NCBI GenBank assembly: GCA_039586495.1
Contig: JBDHKG010000033.1
Location: 5,689-69,688, forward strand
Direction: 5' to 3'
DNA length: 64,000 nt
Origin: Gemmatimonadota bacterium
Lineage (GTDB): Bacteria; Gemmatimonadota; Gemmatimonadetes; Palauibacterales; KS3-K002
Below are positions 1-19,479 of the stretch, piece by piece (position 1 is the first letter of the stretch; every line of letters begins with the position of its first letter). Position numbers and translations under genes: made by a program. Under the pieces are notes generated by a model. The model saw only the letters and a program-made list of their open reading frames with translations. It ran no database searches and was not told the DNA's origin.

Positions 1-454
1 GCTGTTCGCCTGGGTCTATGAGACCGCAGCTGCGGCCCCTTTCCACATGGGCACGGTCGAGGCGCCTCACTACCGACGCTACTGGTTCCAGCGCAAGCTG
101 AAGGAGGGTGCGTCGGCGGAAGAGCTGAGCAAGCTGGCGATGCGGATGGGATTCGGCGTGCGAGACGGGAACGGTGTGATCTTCGTCTCGCACAAGGGCG
201 AAGTCTTCCCTGCCGGTTTCTTGCCACACCCTCTGCTCGGGAACGTGCGCGAGCAACGGCTCTCCGTGATCTATCGGGAATCCCCTCACCTGGCGGAGCT
301 TCGCGACATGGACCGGCTGAAGGGCAAGTGCGGCCGCTGCGAGTTGCGCTGGCTGTGCGGCGGCTCCCGAGCCCGCGCCTACGGGATGACGGGCGACCCC
401 ATGGAATCCGACCCTTTCTGTGTCTACGAGCCGACGGCCGGCGACGGCGGCTGA
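1..454 (+). CDS. Radical SAM/SPASM-domain protein, C-terminal fragment (5' end upstream of window)
   Basis: Frame of listed ORF 47..454 is open from the window edge. The C-terminal Cys cluster GKCGRCELRWLCGGSRARAY...DPFCVYEP is typical of SPASM/twitch auxiliary Fe-S domains. Confidence 0.65.
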   Translation, partial: LFAWVYETAAAAPFHMGTVEAPHYRRYWFQRKLKEGASAEELSKLAMRMGFGVRDGNGVIFVSHKGEVFPAGFLPHPLLGNVREQRLSVIYRESPHLAELRDMDRLKGKCGRCELRWLCGGSRARAYGMTGDPMESDPFCVYEPTAGDGG

Positions 455-545: not shown

Positions 546-917
546 ATGGGAATCGGCAACATCGGCTGGACGGAGTTCTTGGTCATCCTGGCCATCGCGC
601 TCATCTTCTTCGGGCCGCGCCGCTTGCCCGGCATCGCCCAGGCCATCGGTAAGAGTCTGCGGGAGTTCCAGAAGGCACTCAACGAGGTCAAGTCGGAGAT
701 CGCCGAAGCCGGTCGCGAGATGGAGGAACGGCCCGGCCCGGTGATCAGGCCGCCCGCACTGGCGCCCCCGCCGGAAACGACCAGAGAAGCGGAGGCGACC
801 GTCACCCCACAGCCGCCCGAGGAACCAACCCCAAGCCAGTCGACCGGGGGCAACGCCGCGAGTTCAGACAAAACGGAAACGAGTAATGCAGACCCTTCAG
901 ATCCGCACCTCGCGTAG
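546..917 (+). CDS. tatA: Twin-arginine translocase subunit TatA/E
   Basis: Internal ATG at 546 of ORF 420..917 gives MGIGNIGWTEFLVILAIALIFFGPRRLPGIAQAIGKSLREFQKALNE. This is the canonical TatA TM helix, FGP hinge and amphipathic helix, followed by a long Pro/Glu-rich tail. Confidence 0.85.
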   Translation: MGIGNIGWTEFLVILAIALIFFGPRRLPGIAQAIGKSLREFQKALNEVKSEIAEAGREMEERPGPVIRPPALAPPPETTREAEATVTPQPPEEPTPSQSTGGNAASSDKTETSNADPSDPHLA

Positions 918-1287
918 AGCAGAGCTGGTCGATATCACGGCGCAGGTCCGCGATGCGGTGCACAAGACCGCTGTCAGCGAGGGCGTGGCCCACCTATGGT
1001 CCTTTCACACCACATGCGGTCTCACGGTCAATGAGGGCGCCGACCCTGACGTGGCACGCGACATCGCCTGGAAGCTCGGCGAACTGGTGCCGAGAGACGA
1101 CTCTTCCTACCAGCACGCGGAGGGGAACTCGGATTCCCACATCAAGACCAGCCTGATGAACCCGGGGGCGACTTTGCTCGTCACGAACGGTGATATCGCG
1201 CTGGGTACCTGGCAGGCCGTCTTCCTGGCGGAATTCGACGGCCCCAGGCTCAGAAAGGTGGGAGTGCAGGTCGTGCCCGCAGCCTAG
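886..1287 (+). CDS. YjbQ/UPF0047 family protein (secondary thiamine-phosphate synthase-like)
   Basis: 133 aa with family motifs DIT..V, HTTCGLTVNEGADPDV, EGNSDSHIKTSL and GTWQAVFLAEFDGPR. Overlaps the tatA tail by 32 nt. Confidence 0.8.
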   Translation: MQTLQIRTSRRAELVDITAQVRDAVHKTAVSEGVAHLWSFHTTCGLTVNEGADPDVARDIAWKLGELVPRDDSSYQHAEGNSDSHIKTSLMNPGATLLVTNGDIALGTWQAVFLAEFDGPRLRKVGVQVVPAA

Positions 1288-1928
1288 CGCGAGGACCTCT
1301 GCCCAACGTCGCTGCGGCCGCCTGCCTCGCCGACGGCCTCGCGAAGCTGCTCGTAGCCTTCTTTCCCCAGGATCTCCTTGAACTCGCAGGCGTACGCGTC
1401 GATCGCTCGTGTCGAGCCATCAAAGGCTAGCGTACAGCAGCGGCGGACGCCGTCGCACAGGTCATCGAACTCCACTCGCTCAAACGACGTGACCAGTGGA
1501 AATAGGCGGCAGTAGAACGGCTTGAGGCGCACGCCCTCCGCCAGAGCGAGATCCGGCTCGATCAGCTGAAGAGTGCACAGCCCGTCACGGTTCAGAAACG
1601 CGCACTTGCCGTTGTAAACCGCCGTGCCGATGCAGAGGCCGCCAGGGTAGTCCTCGTCTCTTTCGATTTCGTCCTCGAACCACAGGCTCGTATCCCAGGT
1701 CTGGCTGTCATCCAGGCCCGCCTGGATACGGCCCGCGCAAGCCAGGATACGGTCGCGCTCCTGCAACGAGACGTACACCCCATGACGGCAGCAGTGACCG
1801 CCGCACTCCTCAGGTGCGTTGGACGGTCCACCACCTTCGATACAGCCACGCGCGACCATGCCTTGCACGGTCCACCGGCCGATCCGGATATCGTCGCTCT
1901 GCGGCGTGCTACGTTGGCGTGCTCGCAT
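1284..1928 (-). CDS. Cysteine-rich putative Fe-S/zinc protein (DUF3109 / YkgJ-like)
   Basis: Cys clusters CGGHCCRHGVYV, GKCAFLNRDGLCTLQ and FYCRLFPL resemble CxxCxxCC-type cluster proteins. The start codon is uncertain. Confidence 0.45.
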   Translation of the reverse strand: MRARQRSTPQSDDIRIGRWTVQGMVARGCIEGGGPSNAPEECGGHCCRHGVYVSLQERDRILACAGRIQAGLDDSQTWDTSLWFEDEIERDEDYPGGLCIGTAVYNGKCAFLNRDGLCTLQLIEPDLALAEGVRLKPFYCRLFPLVTSFERVEFDDLCDGVRRCCTLAFDGSTRAIDAYACEFKEILGKEGYEQLREAVGEAGGRSDVGQRSSR

Positions 1929-12028: not shown

Positions 12029-12463
12029 ATGCTCATAGGCTATCTGACCCGCGCGGTGCACTTCTCCGCGTCGCACCGCTACTACCGACCGGAGTGGAGC
12101 GAGGAAGAAAACCGGCGACGTTTCGGCCCAGCCGCCTCGCCGGAAGGACATGGGCATAACTACCGCTGTGAGGTAACCGTATGCGGTCCCATCGACGAGC
12201 ACGCCGGAGTGGTGATGGACCTTCCGGAGTTTGACCGGCTGCTGGCCGACGAAATCGTAGACCGCTTTCACAACCGCAACATCAACAGTGCCGTTCCCGA
12301 GTTCGGGCCGGGCCGCGACCTGCCCACCACCGAGAACCTGGCAGCCTACATACTCGAGAGGGTGCGCGCACGCTTGCCCTCGGGCGTCCGGGTCTACCGC
12401 GTACGCGTCCAAGAGGACCGCGACCTCTGGTCCGATGTGTACGGATCAGATCAGCCGGTCTAG
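12029..12463 (+). CDS. queD: 6-carboxy-5,6,7,8-tetrahydropterin synthase (6-pyruvoyl-tetrahydropterin synthase family)
   Basis: FSASHRYY...GHGHNYRCEVTVCGPIDEHAGVVMDLPEF shows the typical PTPS/QueD His/Cys motifs. Confidence 0.8.
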   Translation: MLIGYLTRAVHFSASHRYYRPEWSEEENRRRFGPAASPEGHGHNYRCEVTVCGPIDEHAGVVMDLPEFDRLLADEIVDRFHNRNINSAVPEFGPGRDLPTTENLAAYILERVRARLPSGVRVYRVRVQEDRDLWSDVYGSDQPV

Positions 12464-12498
12464 CTGCCCTCTCGACCGAGGCGCGGCCCACACCCAGC

Positions 12499-13332
12499 TC
12501 AGCCGACCGGGAACGCGCGCTGCAGCTCGGCCAGCGCCTCGGGGAACCGACGCACCGTGAGCCGATAGCCTGGGACCTCCACCGCGAGACGGCTGAGACA
12601 TTCGAAGTCCCGCGCTGGCTCCACGCCCGCGAAGCGTCCCAGCATGAGGCCCTCCAAGGTCCTCGAAGCCCGCAGGCGCTCCAGCCGGGTCCGACCGCCG
12701 TGCTCCAAGAAGACCAAGGCGCGAAGTCCGTGCGGCTGCGAGCGACGACGCGCCGCCACATCCGGGTGCACCCACAAATACGGTTCACAGAGCTGCGCGC
12801 CTTGCGGCAACTCGTCCCCCACGCCAAGGCGCAACAGCGCCTCACGGTGTACGCGGATGGATCGTGCGAACGGCTCGATCTGGCCGGCCGAGGGATCGAT
12901 CAGCACAACCTCATCGCTGAGCGGCTGCAGACCGTGCAGGAGCAGACCGAAGGTAAGGATGGACTTGCCGCTCCCCGAGTCCCCGATCACCACCAGGCAG
13001 GCGCCGCCGTCGGACACCGCGGCGGCGTGCAGGTAGACATAACGAGACGCGTGTGCAAGAAGGGCATCCGTGAGTTCGGCCTCGCAGAGGGCCGCCGCCT
13101 CGCCTGCCTGGTCGGCATACCAGTCGCCGCTGGGCCCGGTCAGCTTGTAGCTGCCGTTCTCCCGCTCCAGGCAGATCAGGACCGCACCGGCCTCCCGGGG
13201 CTCCGGACCGCGCTTTCGGTAGGCTGGATAGAAGCGCCCTACGATCGGCAGCAACTCGGGCACAGCCACGTGAAGCGCGACGCAGCCGCAGCCGATGTAG
13301 TCGCGATAGTGCAGGGTCTGAGGCACCGTCAC
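12499..13332 (-). CDS. HPr-kinase-like P-loop protein (HprK-related kinase)
   Basis: ACLVVIGDSGSGKSILTFGLLLHGLQPLSDEVVLID resembles the HPr kinase/phosphorylase C-terminal P-loop. GTG start. Last gene of the PqqD/methyltransferase cassette. Confidence 0.65.
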   Translation of the reverse strand: MTVPQTLHYRDYIGCGCVALHVAVPELLPIVGRFYPAYRKRGPEPREAGAVLICLERENGSYKLTGPSGDWYADQAGEAAALCEAELTDALLAHASRYVYLHAAAVSDGGACLVVIGDSGSGKSILTFGLLLHGLQPLSDEVVLIDPSAGQIEPFARSIRVHREALLRLGVGDELPQGAQLCEPYLWVHPDVAARRRSQPHGLRALVFLEHGGRTRLERLRASRTLEGLMLGRFAGVEPARDFECLSRLAVEVPGYRLTVRRFPEALAELQRAFPVG

Positions 13333-13344
13333 TGCCAGTGGCGA

Positions 13345-13587
13345 CTACGTCCCCGGCGGTCGCTGTGGCGGGCGGTACTTGTCAGACGGTCTCTCCGGTC
13401 CCGCGGGTCGTTCAGGACTCGGTGCCTGCTGCGGGGCAGGGTGGGGCTTGTGTATCGAGGACTTGCCCTGCAGGATCCCGAGCGCCGGTGCCACGGAAAA
13501 GGTCGCTACGGCGGGCGCCGTGTACGCCGCACCTCGCGCCAGCTTCAGTAGAAACTCTCGACGAGTCGGATCACGCTCTTCGCTCAC
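13345..13587 (-). CDS. Small (80-aa) Tat-signal-like, Pro/Arg/Lys-rich peptide; candidate precursor peptide
   Basis: This is the C-terminal part of listed ORF 13345..13917. Its GTG start overlaps the TGA stop of the methyltransferase (GTGA) and is preceded by GGAGGAGAGG. Sequence: VSEERDPTRREFLLKLARGAAYTAPAVATFSVAPALGILQGKSSIHKPHPAPQQAPSPERPAGPERPSDKYRPPQRPPGT. TRREFLLK matches the (S/T)RRxFLK Tat motif. Confidence 0.4.
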   Translation of the reverse strand: MSEERDPTRREFLLKLARGAAYTAPAVATFSVAPALGILQGKSSIHKPHPAPQQAPSPERPAGPERPSDKYRPPQRPPGT

Positions 13588-14765
13588 ACCTCTCCTCCCA
13601 ATTCGCTGAGGGCGGCCGCGGCCTCCGCCTGCCGCGGGGCAATCTCCGCCGCCTCGATCTCCTTCGCCACCACCCGGTAGGCCGCGCTCAGCGTGCGCAC
13701 AGACTCCGGAAATCGCTCCCTGAGCGCCGCTGCGATCTCGGCCACGCTGCGCTGTCCGTCCATCAGGTCCAGTACGGCACGCCGGGCCCGGCCCCTCGGC
13801 GTAAGCACAGGTCGGTAGTCGAGCCGCGCCCGCTGCAGTCGCTCCAGCGAGAGCGGGATTCCCCGGAACGTGTTCATCTCCTGCGTTTCCCCGCCTGCGC
13901 TTACCCGCCAGGTCCACCAGGTGTCGGTACGCGAGGCGGCACCTCCGACAGTCGCGACCCTGGCCACGACCCGCTCACCGGGCCGCAGCTCCACAGGCCC
14001 TGGGAGAGGCATGAAAACCTGCCCCCAGCTACTCGCGCGCTCCGCCGGCCCGTTGGAGTACGCAACGCCATCGGCGAGGTCGAGGTCCAACCACAGCCCC
14101 AGACCCTGCAGCTCGCCTGCCTGGCCGAGCTCCCAGCTGACCTCCGCGGAGACGCCGAGCGGGGCGTCCTCCAGCGGATTGACGCGGGCAACCTCAAGCG
14201 GGGCGGCCAGCAGCACGTTCTCGGCCCAGCACGCGGGGTGCAGGTTGTTGAGCACCCTGTGAGTCAACCGCTCGATGTCGAGGCCGTAGGGGATGTCTTC
14301 ACGCAACGGCACCAACGCGTCGTAGGTTTCGGGACACGTAACCGGTGCCAGCATCACGCTGATGGCCCGGGGTACCGCTCTGGCCTCGGGCTTGAGCCAG
14401 CGGCGTCGTATGTCCTCTAGAATCAACGCCGTCTCGGTCTGACATAGGTACGGCGCATAGTCCTCGAAGATCAGAAAGTCGGCGCGCTCCGGGGGCTGGA
14501 GGTTTCCCGCCCAGCCTTCCATGAAGGTGATGCGATCTGCGAGGCCGTTGTCCGTGGCTAACTGCCTGGCCACCTCGATGATCGGGTTCGCCTCCACCGC
14601 GTACACGCGTGCGCCCGCCCGGGCCGCGAACATGGCATAGGTCCCGATTCCGGTCCCCAGGTCGAGGACAACCTGGCCCGGAGATACGCTCCGCTCGATG
14701 GCACGGCGAAACGCCTCAACCCTTGGATTGTCCGCCAGAAGCCGGAGATACTCGACTGGGTTCAT
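13584..14765 (-). CDS. Class I SAM-dependent methyltransferase (PRMT-like) with C-terminal PqqD-like domain
   Basis: SAM motif VVLDLGTGIGTYAMFAARAGARVYAVEANP, with a PRMT-like beta-barrel region. The C-terminus RRAVLDLMDGQRSVAEIAAALRERFPE...AYRVVAKEIE resembles a PqqD/RRE winged helix. Confidence 0.7.
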   Translation of the reverse strand: MNPVEYLRLLADNPRVEAFRRAIERSVSPGQVVLDLGTGIGTYAMFAARAGARVYAVEANPIIEVARQLATDNGLADRITFMEGWAGNLQPPERADFLIFEDYAPYLCQTETALILEDIRRRWLKPEARAVPRAISVMLAPVTCPETYDALVPLREDIPYGLDIERLTHRVLNNLHPACWAENVLLAAPLEVARVNPLEDAPLGVSAEVSWELGQAGELQGLGLWLDLDLADGVAYSNGPAERASSWGQVFMPLPGPVELRPGERVVARVATVGGAASRTDTWWTWRVSAGGETQEMNTFRGIPLSLERLQRARLDYRPVLTPRGRARRAVLDLMDGQRSVAEIAAALRERFPESVRTLSAAYRVVAKEIEAAEIAPRQAEAAAALSELGGEV

Positions 14766-14818
14766 CTGATTGCTGCCGCGGCTGGAGTCACTTTCGCGGC
14801 CTACACTCGTCCAAGCTA

Positions 14819-15091
14819 TCAGGCCAGTAGCCCACCCTCGTCGAACCGTGCCAGCGCAGCGCGGACATCCGTCAGCGCACGTTCCGGCTCCAGGCCATAG
14901 GCTTCCTGCAGCTGCACGGCGATCTCTTCAGGCGTTCTATCGCCCGTGCAGTGGCTCCAGACGATGGCGGCGGAGAGGTTGAGAATGTGGAGTTCGTTCG
15001 CGGCGGGGTCGAACACAACCCACTCGTCGTCCACCTGCCGAAACAAAACGTCCTCTCGGGTCCGGGGCTGGCCTGTAGGCTGCGTCGCCAT
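14819..15091 (-). CDS. PqqD-family peptide-chaperone (RRE) protein
   Basis: Internal ATG (15089-15091), preceded by AAGGA, gives a 90-aa protein. VLFRQVDDEWVVFDPAANELHILNLSAAIVWSHCTGDRTPEEIAVQLQEAYGL...DVRAALARFDEGGLL is the classic PqqD pattern. Confidence 0.7.
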   Translation of the reverse strand: MATQPTGQPRTREDVLFRQVDDEWVVFDPAANELHILNLSAAIVWSHCTGDRTPEEIAVQLQEAYGLEPERALTDVRAALARFDEGGLLA

Positions 15092-15185
15092 ATCCTTCAA
15101 GCTAGAGGAATTCGCAAACGTTTCAAGCTGGAGCCTGGTTCGGGCCAACGCTCCGGCCTGATCAGGTGTTAGACTAACGAGGCCG

Positions 15186-15752
15186 ATGGCTGCCACAAGC
15201 GAAGGCGTCAAGCCGGTCCAGGACGAGCCGCAGCTCGTCGAGCGCGTGCGTCGGGGTGACCGCGATGCCTTCGCCGCCCTGGTCGATCGATACGCGGACC
15301 AGGCGTTCGCCGTGGCCTACGGGTTCCTCCGGCACGCTCAGGACGCAGAGGACCTCGTGCAGGACGCGCTCATTCGCGCGCTGGAGCGTATCGGTTCGCT
15401 CAGGCCGGGCAGCTCATTCGGGCCGTGGTTCTACCGACTGCTCGTCAACGCGGCCCTCAACCGGCGCGAGTACCTCGCCCGGCGCGGCACGGCGCAGCTG
15501 CCAGTCGGGGTGCCCGCCCGGGACGGCCCGGCCGTGGATGCGGAGCGAGCCGAGTTGCAGCAGCGACTCGCCCGGGCCCTCAGCGCGCTGCCGAGGGACT
15601 TGGAATCGGTGGTGATCCTCCACGACCTGGAGGGGTTCACCCATCCGGAGATCGCCGGGATACTCGGGATCCCGGAAGGGACATGCCGCTCGCACCTCTT
15701 CCGGGCGCGGCGCATGCTGCGGGATCTGCTGAAGGATTACCGCCACCAGTAG
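15186..15752 (+). CDS. ECF (sigma-70 family) RNA polymerase sigma factor
   Basis: Region 2 is RGDRDAFAALVDRYADQAFAVAYGFLRHAQDAEDLVQDALIRA. Region 4 is DLEGFTHPEIAGILGIPEGTCRSHLFRAR. Confidence 0.9.
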   Translation: MAATSEGVKPVQDEPQLVERVRRGDRDAFAALVDRYADQAFAVAYGFLRHAQDAEDLVQDALIRALERIGSLRPGSSFGPWFYRLLVNAALNRREYLARRGTAQLPVGVPARDGPAVDAERAELQQRLARALSALPRDLESVVILHDLEGFTHPEIAGILGIPEGTCRSHLFRARRMLRDLLKDYRHQ

Positions 15753-15768: not shown

Positions 15769-16197
15769 ATGTCCGACCGATACGACGAGGCTCCGATCCC
15801 CGAACTGGAGGCGCTCAAGCCCCCACTCCGATCCGACATCGAGCGGCGGCGGGCGCGGCAGCGCGTCCTCGCCTGTGCCGAGCCCCTGCTGGCGCGACGA
15901 CGGCGCGCAGGCTCGTCCTGGGAGGTGCTCGCTGCCTGGGCCCGGCCAGGACTGGTCGCAGCCAGTGTCGTGCTTGCCATACTTGCCGCGGCCCTGAAGT
16001 TGGGCGGCGGCCCTGCGCGCCCGGTTCCCGAGCCCGTCTTGCTGGACGACGTGCTGGCGACAGGTGCGAACGGCTCGGTTCCGGCGCTGTTGGTGGCGAT
16101 GAGCGAGCCAGACATCGACGCGGTGGTGGCGGCGGCCCTGATTGAGACGAATGGTAGCAGCGGCGCCCTGCCGCAAGAACAGTTGCAGGGGCGGTGA
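15769..16197 (+). CDS. Putative anti-sigma factor (single-pass membrane protein)
   Basis: Immediately follows the ECF sigma gene. Has one TM segment (GLVAASVVLAILAAALKL). The call rests on position only. Confidence 0.4.
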   Translation: MSDRYDEAPIPELEALKPPLRSDIERRRARQRVLACAEPLLARRRRAGSSWEVLAAWARPGLVAASVVLAILAAALKLGGGPARPVPEPVLLDDVLATGANGSVPALLVAMSEPDIDAVVAAALIETNGSSGALPQEQLQGR

Positions 16198-16204
16198 TTC
16201 AACG

Positions 16205-16636
16205 ATGAACGGGAAGTCAAAGGCGTGGGCGCTGGCCCTGCTCGTCGGCGTGCTCATCCTCGGCAGCGTGGTGGGCGCCGCGCTTGACCGCTTTCTGGTC
16301 CGCCGGCCCGCCACAGCAGCCATGCACGAGCGATGGCGAAGCGAGCGGGAGCGCGAGGGCAACCGTCGGGAGGGCTATCTCGACTGGCTGGCCGCTGAGC
16401 TGCAGCTGACGGACGAGCAGCAAGCCCAGCTGGAAGCAACCGTGGAGCGGCATCGCCAGGAGATGTCGGCGATCTGGCGGGAGATGCGCCCGCGCTTCGA
16501 GCAGCTGAGGGACCAGGCGAGGGCCGAGGTACGGGCGCTGCTCACTGAGGAGCAGCTCGCTGCCTACGAGCGGCTCCTGGAAAGGGAATCCCAGAGAAGG
16601 CGTCCTGCACACAGAAGGGAAATAGACGAGCCCTGA
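16205..16636 (+). CDS. Periplasmic Spy/CpxP-family (LTXXQ motif) protein
   Basis: Internal ATG at 16205 gives signal-like MNGKSKAWALALLVGVLILGSVVGA. Two LTXXQ motifs (LTDEQQAQL, LTEEQLAAY). Confidence 0.6.
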   Translation: MNGKSKAWALALLVGVLILGSVVGAALDRFLVRRPATAAMHERWRSEREREGNRREGYLDWLAAELQLTDEQQAQLEATVERHRQEMSAIWREMRPRFEQLRDQARAEVRALLTEEQLAAYERLLERESQRRRPAHRREIDEP

Positions 16637-16710: not shown

Positions 16711-17817
16711 CTACTCCATCAAGCGCAGCGGCATCACCAGACACAGGTAGCTCTCGTCACCGCCCACTGGCTCGAACGTGGCAGGTCGTTCCGGAGCGCT
16801 CAAGGCAATCTGCACCTCTTCGGTGCTGATGTAGCGCAAGATCTCAAGCAGATAATTGGCGTTGAAACCGATGTCCAACGGTGCCGCTGAGTACTCTACC
16901 CCCAGCTCGTCCTCCGCTTCGCCCAGATCCGGCGTCTGCACAGCTAGCCGTAAGGTCCCAGGCCCGAAGCTCAGGCGGACTCTATGCGTCTGGTCCGAGG
17001 CCACTATCGCGACTCTACGCACCGCTGCGGTGAGCGCTCCCCGATCAGCAATGCAGATCTTGTCGTTGTCCTCAGGGAGCACCTGCTCGTAGTTTGGATA
17101 GGGGCCCTCGATGAGCCGGGTATAGACCTCGACGCGTGCTGTCCGGAACCCCAGATGGCTCTCTGAGCGGGCAATCTCAAGTCGATCCTCGGCGTCAAAC
17201 AGCCGTTCTACCTGCTGTAAGCCTTTCGGCGGCACGATCAGGTCCTCATCCTGCCCAGACGCGTCCCGCGTGACGTTCACGACCATCTTGGCCAGGCGGT
17301 GACCGTTCGTGGCAACCATCCGCATCTCAGCGCCGCGGATTTGCCACAGCACACCGTTCAGCACGGGGCGGGTTTCCTCGCTCGACACGGCGAAGCTCGT
17401 GTGTGCACTTAACTTCTGGAGTTCACCGCTCCGCAGGCTCCAGGCCTCGTCAAAGGGCACATCCGGAAAACTTGGATACTCATCAGCAGGCAGGCTGTGC
17501 AGCCGGAACTTTGAAGTGCCACAGACCAGGCTAACCCTACCCCCATCAGCCTGGAGCTGCACGGGCGCGTCAGGCAGCTCACGCGCGATGTCCGCCACTT
17601 TCTTCGCAGGCAAGGTGATCGCGCCTGCGCGCTCCACCTCCGCTGGCGTCTGCACGCTGACCGAGATGTCCAAGTCGGTACCTCGGACCCGCAGCCTATC
17701 CTCGAGCGTCTCCACCAAGATGTTCGAGAGCACAGGCAGCGTTGTGCGGGCGGGGATGGTCGCTGCTACCGCGGACAGTCCCCTCTGGAAGTTCTCGCGC
17801 GTGATCGTGACCTTCAT
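16711..17817 (-). CDS. dnaN: DNA polymerase III beta sliding clamp
   Basis: 368 aa. MKVTITRENFQRGLSAVAATIPARTTLPVLSNILVE... ends in MPLRL. Immediately downstream of dnaA. Confidence 0.95.
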   Translation of the reverse strand: MKVTITRENFQRGLSAVAATIPARTTLPVLSNILVETLEDRLRVRGTDLDISVSVQTPAEVERAGAITLPAKKVADIARELPDAPVQLQADGGRVSLVCGTSKFRLHSLPADEYPSFPDVPFDEAWSLRSGELQKLSAHTSFAVSSEETRPVLNGVLWQIRGAEMRMVATNGHRLAKMVVNVTRDASGQDEDLIVPPKGLQQVERLFDAEDRLEIARSESHLGFRTARVEVYTRLIEGPYPNYEQVLPEDNDKICIADRGALTAAVRRVAIVASDQTHRVRLSFGPGTLRLAVQTPDLGEAEDELGVEYSAAPLDIGFNANYLLEILRYISTEEVQIALSAPERPATFEPVGGDESYLCLVMPLRLME

Positions 17818-18102: not shown

Positions 18103-19479
18103 CTAGGAGAATTGGCCGCGCAAGGCCTCGACCTTGCGGCGGAACTCCGGATCCCGCGCCAGCTGTTCCTCAACCTTCTGGATTGAGTGGATGACGGTCG
18201 AGTGATCCCGGCCCCCGAATCGCTCACCGATGCGGGTGTAGGGCAGGTCGAGCAGCGCCTTTTGCAGGTACATCGCGACCTGCCTCGGGTCTGTGACCCG
18301 CCGCTGGCGTTTCTTGGACTGCAGTTCCGTGACGGTGACGCCATAAGCGTGGGCCACCGCGCTCTCGATGTCGGCGGGGGATGCCTCGCGCAACGGGCCC
18401 AAGGCACCGCGCAGCACCTCTGTGGCGAGCTTGGCTGTAATATCCCGCCGGGTGAGCGAGCTGTACGCCAGCAGCTTGATGATCGCGCCCTCAAGCTCAC
18501 GCACTGACGAGCGGCAGTGCTCGGCGATGTAGCTCAGAACCGCATCGCTAATTTCGAGGCCGTCCTGCCCTGCCTTGGACTGGAGTATGGCCATGCGGGT
18601 CTCGAAGTCCGGTGGCCGGATATCCGTGACGAGGCCCCACTGAAACCGGGAGATCAGCCGCTCTTGCAGACCAGGGATTTCCTTCGGCGCCCGGTCGCTA
18701 GTCAAGACGATTTGCCGCTGCGCGTCATGTAGGGCATTGAACGTGTGGAAGAACTCCTCCTGGGTCCCCTCCTTGCCGGCCAGGAAGTGGGCGTCATCAA
18801 CGAGCAGTACGTCGATCCGCCGATAGCGACCGTGAAACTGCGTTGTCTGGCGCGCCTGGATTGCGGCGATCAGCTCGTTGGTGAACCGCTCCGTCGGTAC
18901 GTAGGCCACCCGGCTCCCGGGGAACCTCTTGAGCACGGCGTTGCCGATAGCGTGCATCAGGTGCGTTTTGCCGAGCCCCACGCCACCGTAGATGAACAGT
19001 GGATTGTACGCATGCGCCGGCGCGGAGGCGACAGCCTGGCAGGCTGCTGCGGCAAGCTCGTTGCTGCTGCCAACCACGAAGTTCTCCAGCGTGTAACGCG
19101 CGTTCAGCTGCCCGACCACGGGCGTCGGCGGCGGAGTCGGTGGCTCAGGGGCTCCGCCGCCCGCATCGACCTCCTCAAATCCCACAACTGGCATTGGCTG
19201 GAAGAGCGGTGCACTCTCTGGAAGGTCCGTGCCCGCCTCAAAGCTGAGCCGGAAGCCCGGACCCAGGAGCTGCTGTGTGAGCGACAGCAGAAGCTCGCCG
19301 TACTTGCCCTCGATCCATTCCACCGCGAAGTCGCTGGGCGCGGCGATCACCAGCTCATCGGCTGACAGGGCAACGGCCTGCGTCCGGGCGAGCCAGGTTC
19401 GAAAGCTCTGCTCTGGAAGCTTGACTCTGGCGCCTTCGAGGATTTTCGACCAGGCTTCCTGGGCCGTCAGCTCCATCAA
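18103..19479 (-). CDS. dnaA: Chromosomal replication initiator protein DnaA
   Basis: 458 aa. AAA+ Walker A is GGVGLGKTHL. The C-terminal DNA-binding domain contains RRVTDPRQVAMYL...IGERFGGRDHSTVIHS. Confidence 0.97.
   Translation of the reverse strand: MMELTAQEAWSKILEGARVKLPEQSFRTWLARTQAVALSADELVIAAPSDFAVEWIEGKYGELLLSLTQQLLGPGFRLSFEAGTDLPESAPLFQPMPVVGFEEVDAGGGAPEPPTPPPTPVVGQLNARYTLENFVVGSSNELAAAACQAVASAPAHAYNPLFIYGGVGLGKTHLMHAIGNAVLKRFPGSRVAYVPTERFTNELIAAIQARQTTQFHGRYRRIDVLLVDDAHFLAGKEGTQEEFFHTFNALHDAQRQIVLTSDRAPKEIPGLQERLISRFQWGLVTDIRPPDFETRMAILQSKAGQDGLEISDAVLSYIAEHCRSSVRELEGAIIKLLAYSSLTRRDITAKLATEVLRGALGPLREASPADIESAVAHAYGVTVTELQSKKRQRRVTDPRQVAMYLQKALLDLPYTRIGERFGGRDHSTVIHSIQKVEEQLARDPEFRRKVEALRGQFS

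Follow-up and report, generated by a model that had tools for sequence, protein, structure and literature searches.

A conserved Gemmatimonadota cassette joining a PqqD protein, an HprK-related kinase, a PRMT-fold methyltransferase and a twin-arginine-type peptide: a probable RiPP-like maturation operon

Pairs of a PqqD-type RiPP recognition element (RRE; RiPP, ribosomally made and post-translationally modified peptide) and a kinase resembling HPr kinase/phosphatase (HprK) have so far been catalogued with their substrate unknown, and are understood only as accessories of lasso-peptide pathways. There, PqqD-family RREs are peptide-binding modules (PMC10368454). The lasso-precursor kinase BsfK phosphorylates core residue Ser3, efficiently only with the RRE BsfB1; mutagenesis shows that its motif H148-G163-G166-G168-K169-S170-D186-D187 is needed, and its leader carries YxxPxL at positions -17 to -12, so that the Ser3 acceptor stands 19 residues past Tyr(-17) (PMC10368454). 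In the case of the lasso peptide pseudomycoidin, the nucleotidyltransferase PsmN elaborates the kinase-installed phosphate (PMC8498205). Two further systems hold such a pair: the catalogued, uncharacterised HPr-rel-A system (TIGR04352 kinase and TIGR04353 PqqD family chaperone) and the SynChlorMet cassette, also uncharacterised, in which an HprK-like ScmC and a PqqD-like ScmD accompany radical S-adenosylmethionine (SAM) enzymes. Here we describe a four-gene cassette at positions 12499-15091 of a 64,000-nucleotide stretch (the window) of contig JBDHKG010000033.1 from a Gemmatimonadota bacterium (GCA_039586495.1), in which an RRE/kinase pair is joined by a methyltransferase with a predicted protein arginine methyltransferase (PRMT) fold and by a small gene for a peptide with a leader resembling a twin-arginine translocation (Tat) signal. 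We consider it a probable RRE-dependent, RiPP-like peptide-maturation operon whose substrate is the 80-residue product of the small gene.

All four genes lie on the minus strand in the order PqqD, methyltransferase, peptide, kinase. The open reading frames, coordinates, strand and gaps listed in an initial annotation of this DNA were borne out when the sequence was read again: 53 nt separate the PqqD stop from the methyltransferase start, the methyltransferase and peptide genes overlap by 4 nt (GTGA), and the peptide stop is followed after 12 nt by the kinase start. The features of the cassette are as follows.

14819..15091, minus strand: stand-alone PqqD-family RRE (peptide chaperone), 90 aa (Pfam PqqD, 2.9e-13)
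13584..14765, minus strand: PRMT-fold SAM methyltransferase with PqqD-like helical domain, 393 aa (profile, AlphaFold2 and Foldseek predictions)
13872..14765, minus strand: methyltransferase residues 1-298, predicted Rossmann SAM-binding domain and PRMT beta-barrel (profile, AlphaFold2, Foldseek)
13641..13808, minus strand: methyltransferase residues 320-375, predicted three-helix PqqD-like module, a partial RRE (Pfam, hhalign, AlphaFold2)
13589..13599, minus strand: Shine-Dalgarno-like GGGAGGAGAGG before the peptide start (direct reading of the sequence)
13345..13587, minus strand: putative precursor peptide gene of 80 codons, with a GTG start that overlaps the methyltransferase stop (coding selection, orthologues)
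13465..13587, minus strand: leader, peptide residues 1-41 (96 anchored family members)
13558-13563, minus strand: R9 and R10 of the twin-arginine motif T8-R9-R10-E-F-L-L-K15 (leader alignment)
13513-13524, minus strand: Y22-T-A-P25 motif, with T29 farther along the leader (leader alignment)
13456..13461, minus strand: Ser43-Ser44, candidate phospho-acceptor, 21 and 22 residues past Tyr22 (positional Ser counts)
13348..13464, minus strand: variable tail (putative core), residues 42-80, Pro/Arg/Lys-rich (alignments, composition)
12499..13332, minus strand: HprK-related P-loop kinase, 277 aa (TIGR04352, 1.5e-15)
12961..12984, minus strand: Walker A GDSGSGKS, kinase G117-S124 (sequence, alignment)
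15092..15185, between divergent genes: 94-bp intergenic region between the PqqD and extracytoplasmic function (ECF) sigma factor genes, presumed promoter region

The four genes form a conserved unit. They had been taken for one cassette from this locus alone, and in other genomes they do travel together: the cassette recurs in more than 40 loci, mostly in Gemmatimonadota, including some where the genes are ordered differently between unrelated flanks. Scanning genomes with the methyltransferase family yielded 25 loci, and 14 genome loci, all from Gemmatimonadota, have the identical order PqqD-methyltransferase-peptide-kinase. In these 14, synteny extends over the whole dnaN-to-acetyl-CoA-synthetase region, and by itself it therefore says little. 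At least 15 further loci have other gene orders and other neighbourhoods. The four families are found as kinase-PqqD-methyltransferase-peptide in L015, L018, L019, L021-L024, L041, L043-L045, L064 and L067, with kinase and peptide on the opposite strand in L021 and L022. An extra NTP_transf_5 (PF14907) nucleotidyltransferase is frequent in the reshuffled loci, where it can also head the order as NTP_transf_5-kinase-PqqD-methyltransferase-peptide. The window cassette thus belongs, as one branch, to a broader family in which this enzyme is a frequent addition; the window's clade lacks the gene, and a tblastn search for it elsewhere in the window gave nothing better than E 0.08. Outside the Gemmatimonadota, a Blastopirellula planctomycete metagenome-assembled genome (MAG; L016) and a low-GC Pseudomonadota MAG (L017) carry PqqD-kinase-methyltransferase beside divergent twin-arginine peptides.

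In peptide-centred scans of genome and metagenome contigs, each locus with enough flank has a PqqD, kinase or methyltransferase gene adjoining, as far as the contig reaches. Thirteen distant loci have housekeeping neighbours, including his genes and SRP54, and in several Gemmatimonadales loci (L019, L064, L041/L043, L024) rpoC lies upstream (about four) and rpsL-rpsG-fusA-tuf downstream (about three). No recurrent exporter or transporter, protease or cyclase was found among the 65 neighbour proteins of the 13 loci, and the cassette is therefore self-contained. Three fusions also tie its parts together: PqqD with the kinase in Bosea, the methyltransferase in frame with a family peptide in P0109 (446 aa, from the representative library), and the methyltransferase with its PqqD-like domain in the window. 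A scan with the Bosea PqqD-kinase fusion matched only itself and one Kaistia contig.

Several of these loci show peculiarities of their own. P0109 may be a true fusion or the result of a lost stop codon. In Bosea sp. (L046, 5726-8744) and Kaistia sp. (L050), three tandem short peptides are followed by the PqqD-kinase fusion and then NTP_transf_5, and there is no methyltransferase. A group II intron reverse transcriptase/maturase is inserted directly upstream of the kinase gene in L019 (5291-6733), and the PqqD gene of a Longimicrobiales locus (L023, 7859-7993) is apparently frameshifted, through either an assembly error or pseudogene formation.

The stand-alone PqqD/RRE protein proposed by the initial annotation is supported by a full-length Pfam match covering 67 of 67 model positions. 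Its mechanical open reading frame reaches a TTG at 15211, and all orthologues align from the ATG at 15091. On TIGR04353 it scores 35.0 bits at a cut-off of 35 (relatives, 22-30 bits), and it matches lasso_PqqD_Strm at 8e-9, below the cut-off of that model. The P-loop protein with GDSGSGKS was likewise correctly recognized as HPr-kinase-like, by its TIGR04352 match ('HprK-related kinase A', NCBIfam; 57.1 bits at a cut-off of 200; relatives, 29-77 bits) and its predicted fold; the Pfam Hpr_kinase_C match is weak (0.052). Its profile matches HPr kinase/phosphatase 1ko7 at 3.3e-9, and the AlphaFold2 model (predicted local distance difference test, pLDDT, 85) leads Foldseek to phosphoenolpyruvate carboxykinase and HprK/P folds. 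H102, G117, G120, G122, K123 and D140 are invariant in the kinase alignment, and the spacing of H102, G117, G120, G122, K123, S124 and D140-E141 is identical to that of the BsfK catalytic motif. Judged from this alignment, all catalytic residues of the lasso-precursor kinases are retained here. The homologues P0048 and P0049 carry the precomputed Pfam accession PF27840.

The methyltransferase passes the cut-offs of class I methyltransferase models, with a weak match to PRMT_C (7e-4). Its family profile matches PRMT6, CARM1 and PRMT1 with E values from 1e-30 to 8e-39 (PRMT6, 8e-39), covering residues 7-284, and its AlphaFold2 model (pLDDT 81.9) finds CARM1 and PRMT6 by Foldseek at 1e-23, with a TM score of about 0.7 on the target. 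The enzyme is thus predicted to have the PRMT fold, a Rossmann SAM-binding domain followed by a beta-barrel. A homologue search found about 33 relatives, and all those with an organism name are from Gemmatimonadota. In the double-E loop the first glutamate, E101, is invariant among the members linked to a cassette; as the second, most of the main clade has E111 and some have Gly, Asp or Ala, and distant members have Asp at 109. The THW loop reads S/G/P-x-W, so that the tryptophan (W247) is kept and the histidine is lost. Because of this loss and of the second glutamate, which is not strictly conserved, an arginine substrate is uncertain; from the sequence it is plausible.

The initial annotation had also given this enzyme a PqqD-like domain of its own at the C terminus. 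Pfam PqqD matches weakly there (1.8e-3, residues 330-364), and hhalign aligns the domain with the stand-alone PqqDs at 73% probability (E 3e-5, 35 columns). AlphaFold2 predicts helices at 323-334, 341-351 and 359-373 and no strands. The likeness to PqqD thus stands for the helical half, alongside the PRMT fold, while the beta-sheet wing is not predicted; we regard the domain as a modelled helical half of an RRE and not as a demonstrated complete RRE. Derivation of the domain from the C terminus of NTP_transf_5, raised by a weak tblastn match, was rejected at an hhalign probability of 1%. Among related proteins, the closest short PRMT-like homologue (P0034, in L026-L031) is a 329-residue stand-alone protein on sulfatase-rich contigs, with THW intact (L026); given this other context and the lack of kinase and PqqD, it was not counted as a member of the system.

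The 80-codon gene is nested inside a longer mechanical open reading frame (13345-13917) that overlaps the methyltransferase gene. It has a GTG start at 13587 preceded by GGGAGGAGAGG, and its orthologues begin at the same place. In the leader block of 21 orthologous genes, reading in frame gives 2409 synonymous codon differences and the two shifted frames give 461 and 265, and differences by codon position number 1726, 993 and 3356. Moreover, 19 close homologues are already called as genes in other genomes, annotated as hypothetical protein. The small frame is therefore both conserved and coding, as the initial annotation supposed, and its description as a twin-arginine-signal-like, Pro/Arg/Lys-rich peptide is confirmed by the leader motif and the tail composition.

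A profile search of 1.84 billion representatives recovered 65 peptide clusters at E <= 1e-3, nearly all of 53-115 residues. They share a nearly invariant leader, RR-x-F-L-x-K-L-A-x-G-x-x-Y-x-A-P-x-V-x-T/S, followed by a hypervariable tail. Across 96 anchored members, the two arginines are present in 96 and 95, the phenylalanine in 95, and the tyrosine in 84 (Phe in 10); a proline follows three residues on in all 96, and Ser or Thr stands at +7 from the tyrosine in 95. The YxxP motif lies at a fixed distance from RR, and the leader reads Y-x-A-P-x-[VI], in agreement with the YxxPxL of lasso leaders. Serine occurs at positions +19 to +22 past the tyrosine in 83 of 94 members; in control windows of the same length it does so in 7-31 of 94. 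Ser, Thr or Tyr at +18 to +22 is present in all outgroup peptides (L016, L017, L032 and the Bosea/Kaistia/P0127 group), and the short Bosea-type peptides stop exactly at +18/+19 with S or Y at +18. Two other acceptors were considered and rejected: a C-terminal serine of the paeninodin type, as only 5 of 94 peptides end in Ser, and Tyr22 as a universal site, as 12 of 96 members have Phe, Ile or Leu instead.

The tails are of low complexity (Pro 20%, Gly 14%, Ser 11%), with lineage-specific runs of His (23 of 94) or Met (15 of 94), CxxC, or repeats of Gly and Lys. Toward the C terminus, most lineages share the loosely conserved motif APWxxPPPG, which reads PS[DE]K[HY][PR]PP in the window's clade and P67-S-D-K-Y-R-P-P in the window peptide. 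Members such as L044, L045, L048, L015, P0073, P0085, P0097 and P0112, among others, have His runs of up to eight residues, Met runs, GMGM repeats or HHGHGCxxCPPPH. The composition of these His/Met/Cys-rich sister tails suggests metal binding; the window's own tail is instead Pro/Arg/Lys-rich. In L032 (448-4131), a radical SAM gene is followed by PqqD, a 76-residue peptide and an HprK-like kinase, with the PRMT-like methyltransferase convergent. This peptide joins the same RR...YxAP leader to a Cys/Met/Pro-rich core (LSCNPACSPQPCMPTLIPCMPTNCMPMVCMPVTG), and since the leader there precedes a Cys-rich core beside radical SAM, PqqD, kinase and methyltransferase, the locus supports a division of the family peptides into leader and core.

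A Tat signal consists of S/T-R-R-x-F-L-K, an uncharged hydrophobic stretch and a small-x-small cleavage site. The window peptide agrees with this consensus, reading T-R-R-E-F-L-L-K, then about 20 uncharged residues, then A-L-G, and the corresponding cleavage-site residues in sister clades are AQA or GQG. Pfam and NCBIfam scans gave no match to the short Tat signal models at E <= 0.1 other than TIGR02811 at 1.2e-3. We argue, from the family alignment, that the leader is more than an export signal, because it is far better conserved than the tail and because the Bosea and Kaistia peptides consist of little else. By analogy from general knowledge, the cassette PqqD would resemble the Tat signal-binding chaperones of the TorD/DmsD/NapD type in being a small cytoplasmic protein that binds a twin-arginine leader before export; the folds are unrelated, and in the cassette the binding is inferred only.

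Compared with the described systems, the cassette stands near several and coincides with none. With the lasso-precursor kinases and their B1 RREs (BsfK/BsfB1; PadeK, ThcoK and SyanK; PsmK with PsmN) it shares the HprK-like H...GxxGxGKS...DD spacing, a PqqD-type RRE alongside, the Y-x-x-P leader motif and, as a candidate, a hydroxyl acceptor about 19 residues past the tyrosine. Relatives of the cassette also carry NTP_transf_5, as pseudomycoidin is tailored by the nucleotidyltransferase PsmN (PMC8498205). In contrast to the lasso systems, the cassette has no linked lasso cyclase, B2 peptidase or ABC (ATP-binding cassette) exporter, a PRMT-fold methyltransferase is integral to it, and its peptide has a twin-arginine-type leader of about 40 residues and a long, low-complexity, Pro-rich tail whose C-terminal Ser is not conserved (5 of 94). 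The cassette thus resembles the RRE-dependent tailoring branch of lasso pathways without being a lasso cluster. Among catalogued systems HPr-rel-A is the nearest to it, and the two share the pair of PqqD and HprK-related kinase; TIGR04352 is the best model for all cassette kinases, although they score 29-77 bits against a cut-off of 200, and the HPr-rel-A models are silent on a substrate, a methyltransferase or a Tat-like peptide. The same pair occurs in SynChlorMet, to which L032 adds the likeness of a radical SAM gene and a Cys-rich peptide, but the ScmD and ScmC model matches are weak and far below the cut-offs, and the window cassette has no radical SAM gene.

The methyltransferase in turn shares with type I PRMTs (PRMT6, CARM1, PRMT1) the predicted Rossmann and beta-barrel domains, the N-terminal L-x-D-x-x-R helix, the first double-E glutamate and the THW tryptophan. 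It differs from the eukaryotic enzymes in that other residues stand in for the THW histidine, the second acidic residue varies or has moved, a PqqD-like C-terminal domain is added, and the enzyme is bacterial and operon-linked to a small peptide. An assignment to anti-phage defence was rejected, as PADLOC gave only generic SAM-domain matches for the methyltransferase and none for the PqqD protein, peptide or kinase. In the literature searched (full texts, with few subscription journals), we found neither this gene set described nor any RiPP pathway that includes a PRMT-type enzyme, nor a naturally occurring RiPP with a Tat leader. The view of the initial annotation that the combination belongs to no described class thus agrees with NCBIfam, Pfam, PADLOC and the full-text literature, where we found no characterised system matching the cassette.

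The window is 62-68% G+C, and the cassette lies beside the replication origin, as the minimum of the cumulative GC skew at about 14-16 kb indicates; dnaN (16711-17817) and dnaA (18103-19479), both on the minus strand, are about 1.6-3 kb away. The nearest genome is the Gemmatimonadota MAG CP070823, with a methyltransferase 89% identical. No sigma-70-type promoters or terminators were detected across 12300-15400, and an Rfam scan found no families. As the initial annotation had stated, no lasso cyclase, B2 protease, radical SAM, YcaO or ABC gene is adjacent: within about 3.5 kb of the cassette, every neighbour was assigned to other families. The other features that bear on the cassette are these.

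15186-15752, plus strand: ECF sigma factor (divergent module)
15769-16197, plus strand: anti-sigma-like open reading frame, no Pfam match (divergent module)
16202-16636, plus strand: Metal_resist/LTXXQ-like periplasmic protein, below cut-off (divergent module)
47-454, plus strand: C-terminal SPASM fragment of a radical-SAM protein, running off the window start, directly upstream of the TatA/B/E gene
546-917, plus strand: TatA/B/E-family gene (PF02416, 3.6e-17)
1284-1928, minus strand: DUF3109 gene, near the TatA/B/E gene

The ECF sigma module does lie divergently upstream, as had been noted at the outset, but a functional tie to the cassette was rejected: the two are paired only in genomes where synteny covers the entire dnaN-to-acetyl-CoA-synthetase region, and none of the distant loci has the pairing.

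Taken together, the cassette shows the general arrangement of RiPP systems, a conserved recognition segment and a variable core beside an RRE-containing set of maturation enzymes. The peptide is very likely the substrate of the cassette enzymes. In the mechanism we propose, the stand-alone PqqD would bind Y-x-A-P in the leader, as lasso B1 proteins bind YxxPxL, and present the peptide to the HprK-related kinase, which would phosphorylate a serine some 18-22 residues past the tyrosine, here Ser43 or Ser44. These two serines are proposed because the BsfK acceptor lies 19 residues past its tyrosine and because the family has a serine hot spot, with S/T/Y positions in the outgroups; by analogy with the lasso kinases, phosphorylation near the junction of leader and tail comes close to an even chance. 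In loci with NTP_transf_5, this enzyme may build further on the phosphate, as PsmN does. The PRMT-like enzyme, perhaps docked through its own helical PqqD-like domain, would N-methylate the peptide, and methylation of the peptide by this enzyme is probable. Candidate sites would be Arg or Lys in the tail, which fits the Arg/Lys-rich tail of the window peptide, or the twin arginines, the only invariant arginines of the family. The modified peptide would then be exported by the general Tat pathway, for which the TatA gene in the window was counted, and trimmed by signal peptidase. This last step is proposed because no exporter or peptidase is linked and because the leader, small-x-small site included, agrees with the Tat consensus; Tat export of the peptide is possible, though somewhat doubtful. 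In its fullest form, the proposal is of a RiPP class whose leader would be a genuine Tat signal, whose PqqD would both present the peptide and hold it back from the Tat translocase, and in which Tat and signal peptidase would replace a dedicated exporter and protease. The mature product would be a phosphorylated, methylated, Pro-rich periplasmic peptide (His/Met/Cys-rich and possibly metal-binding in sister lineages) with a housekeeping role in Gemmatimonadota. We hold this extended version to be rather unlikely as a whole.

Several observations weigh against a RiPP-like maturation operon. All of the chemistry is inferred. The kinase reaches 57 bits on TIGR04352 against a cut-off of 200, the methyltransferase is without the canonical THW histidine and a strictly conserved second glutamate, and its fused domain is without the beta-sheet by which canonical RREs bind leaders. 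Arginine is absent from 24 of 94 tails, and 3 of 94 have neither Arg nor Lys. The putative leader is the most conserved part of the peptide, the Bosea tail is almost nil, and the conserved segment itself could be the target of modification. The cassette, finally, is located in core parts of the chromosome, close to oriC or flanked by rpoC and rpsL, unlike typical natural-product clusters. A rival reading is control directed at the signal itself, in which PqqD, kinase and methyltransferase would hold back the Tat signal, in the manner of TorD/DmsD-type chaperones, and mark it, through methylation of RR or phosphorylation of the +7 Thr/Ser, and so gate the export of a low-complexity, possibly metal-binding periplasmic peptide instead of building a natural product. 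No arginines other than the RR pair (96 and 95 of 96) are invariant, and a quarter or so of the tails (the same 24 of 94) are Arg-free, yet the methyltransferase has a predicted PRMT fold; the S/T at +7 (95 of 96) lies inside the hydrophobic region; and conservation is much higher in the signal-like segment than in the tail, with Bosea peptides that are little else. Tails with runs of His (23 of 94) or Met (15 of 94) or with CxxC, the TatA gene in the window, the Metal_resist/LTXXQ-like gene nearby and the core-genome positions would fit as well. However, the leader before a Cys-rich core beside a radical SAM gene in L032 is a classical RiPP arrangement, the serine hot spot lies beyond the signal-like segment, and the active site of the methyltransferase departs from canonical arginine-specific PRMTs. 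We know of no case in which a Tat signal is methylated or phosphorylated, and the literature search yielded none. We therefore judge signal-directed control unlikely.

The enzymes might instead act on other cellular substrates, such as ribosomal or envelope proteins, with the small gene encoding merely a co-transcribed secreted peptide. The housekeeping positions of the cassette, next to dnaN or rpoC/rpsL, and the related stand-alone PRMT-like proteins without kinase or PqqD (P0034) would accord with this. But PqqD-family RREs bind peptides (PMC10368454), peptide and kinase co-occur wherever the flank suffices, in three phyla and varied gene orders, a natural methyltransferase-peptide fusion exists, and the leader carries a lasso-type YxxP at a fixed distance from RR; substrates elsewhere in the cell are accordingly quite improbable. 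Descent from a decayed lasso-peptide cluster, of which only B1, a tailoring kinase and a methyltransferase survive, could explain why the best PqqD matches include lasso B1 models, why the kinase motif and the YxxP leader motif are common to lasso systems, and why the kinase is found paired with NTP_transf_5, both known lasso tailoring enzymes (PMC8498205). Yet cassette loci contain no cyclase or B2 protease (about 3.5 kb here; 65 neighbour proteins in the 13 loci), all four genes remain intact in different phyla and show purifying selection there, and the tails are unlike lasso cores, which makes decay highly improbable. We thus retain an RRE-dependent, RiPP-like maturation operon as the probable reading of the cassette.

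In this study, one branch of the RRE/kinase pairs is tied to a defined peptide family, with an RR...YxAP leader, a serine hot spot set at a constant spacing from the tyrosine, and a variable tail. The anatomy of the peptide gives concrete residues to mutate and mass shifts to seek. Should the proposed chemistry prove true, a bacterial PRMT-fold enzyme would be added to the biochemistry of peptide natural products, and the cassette would provide, as far as the literature was searched, the first natural modified peptide found with a leader that doubles as a twin-arginine export signal. It would also point to a function that is conserved and anchored in the chromosome of the little-studied Gemmatimonadota, perhaps one in the physiology of metals or of the envelope.

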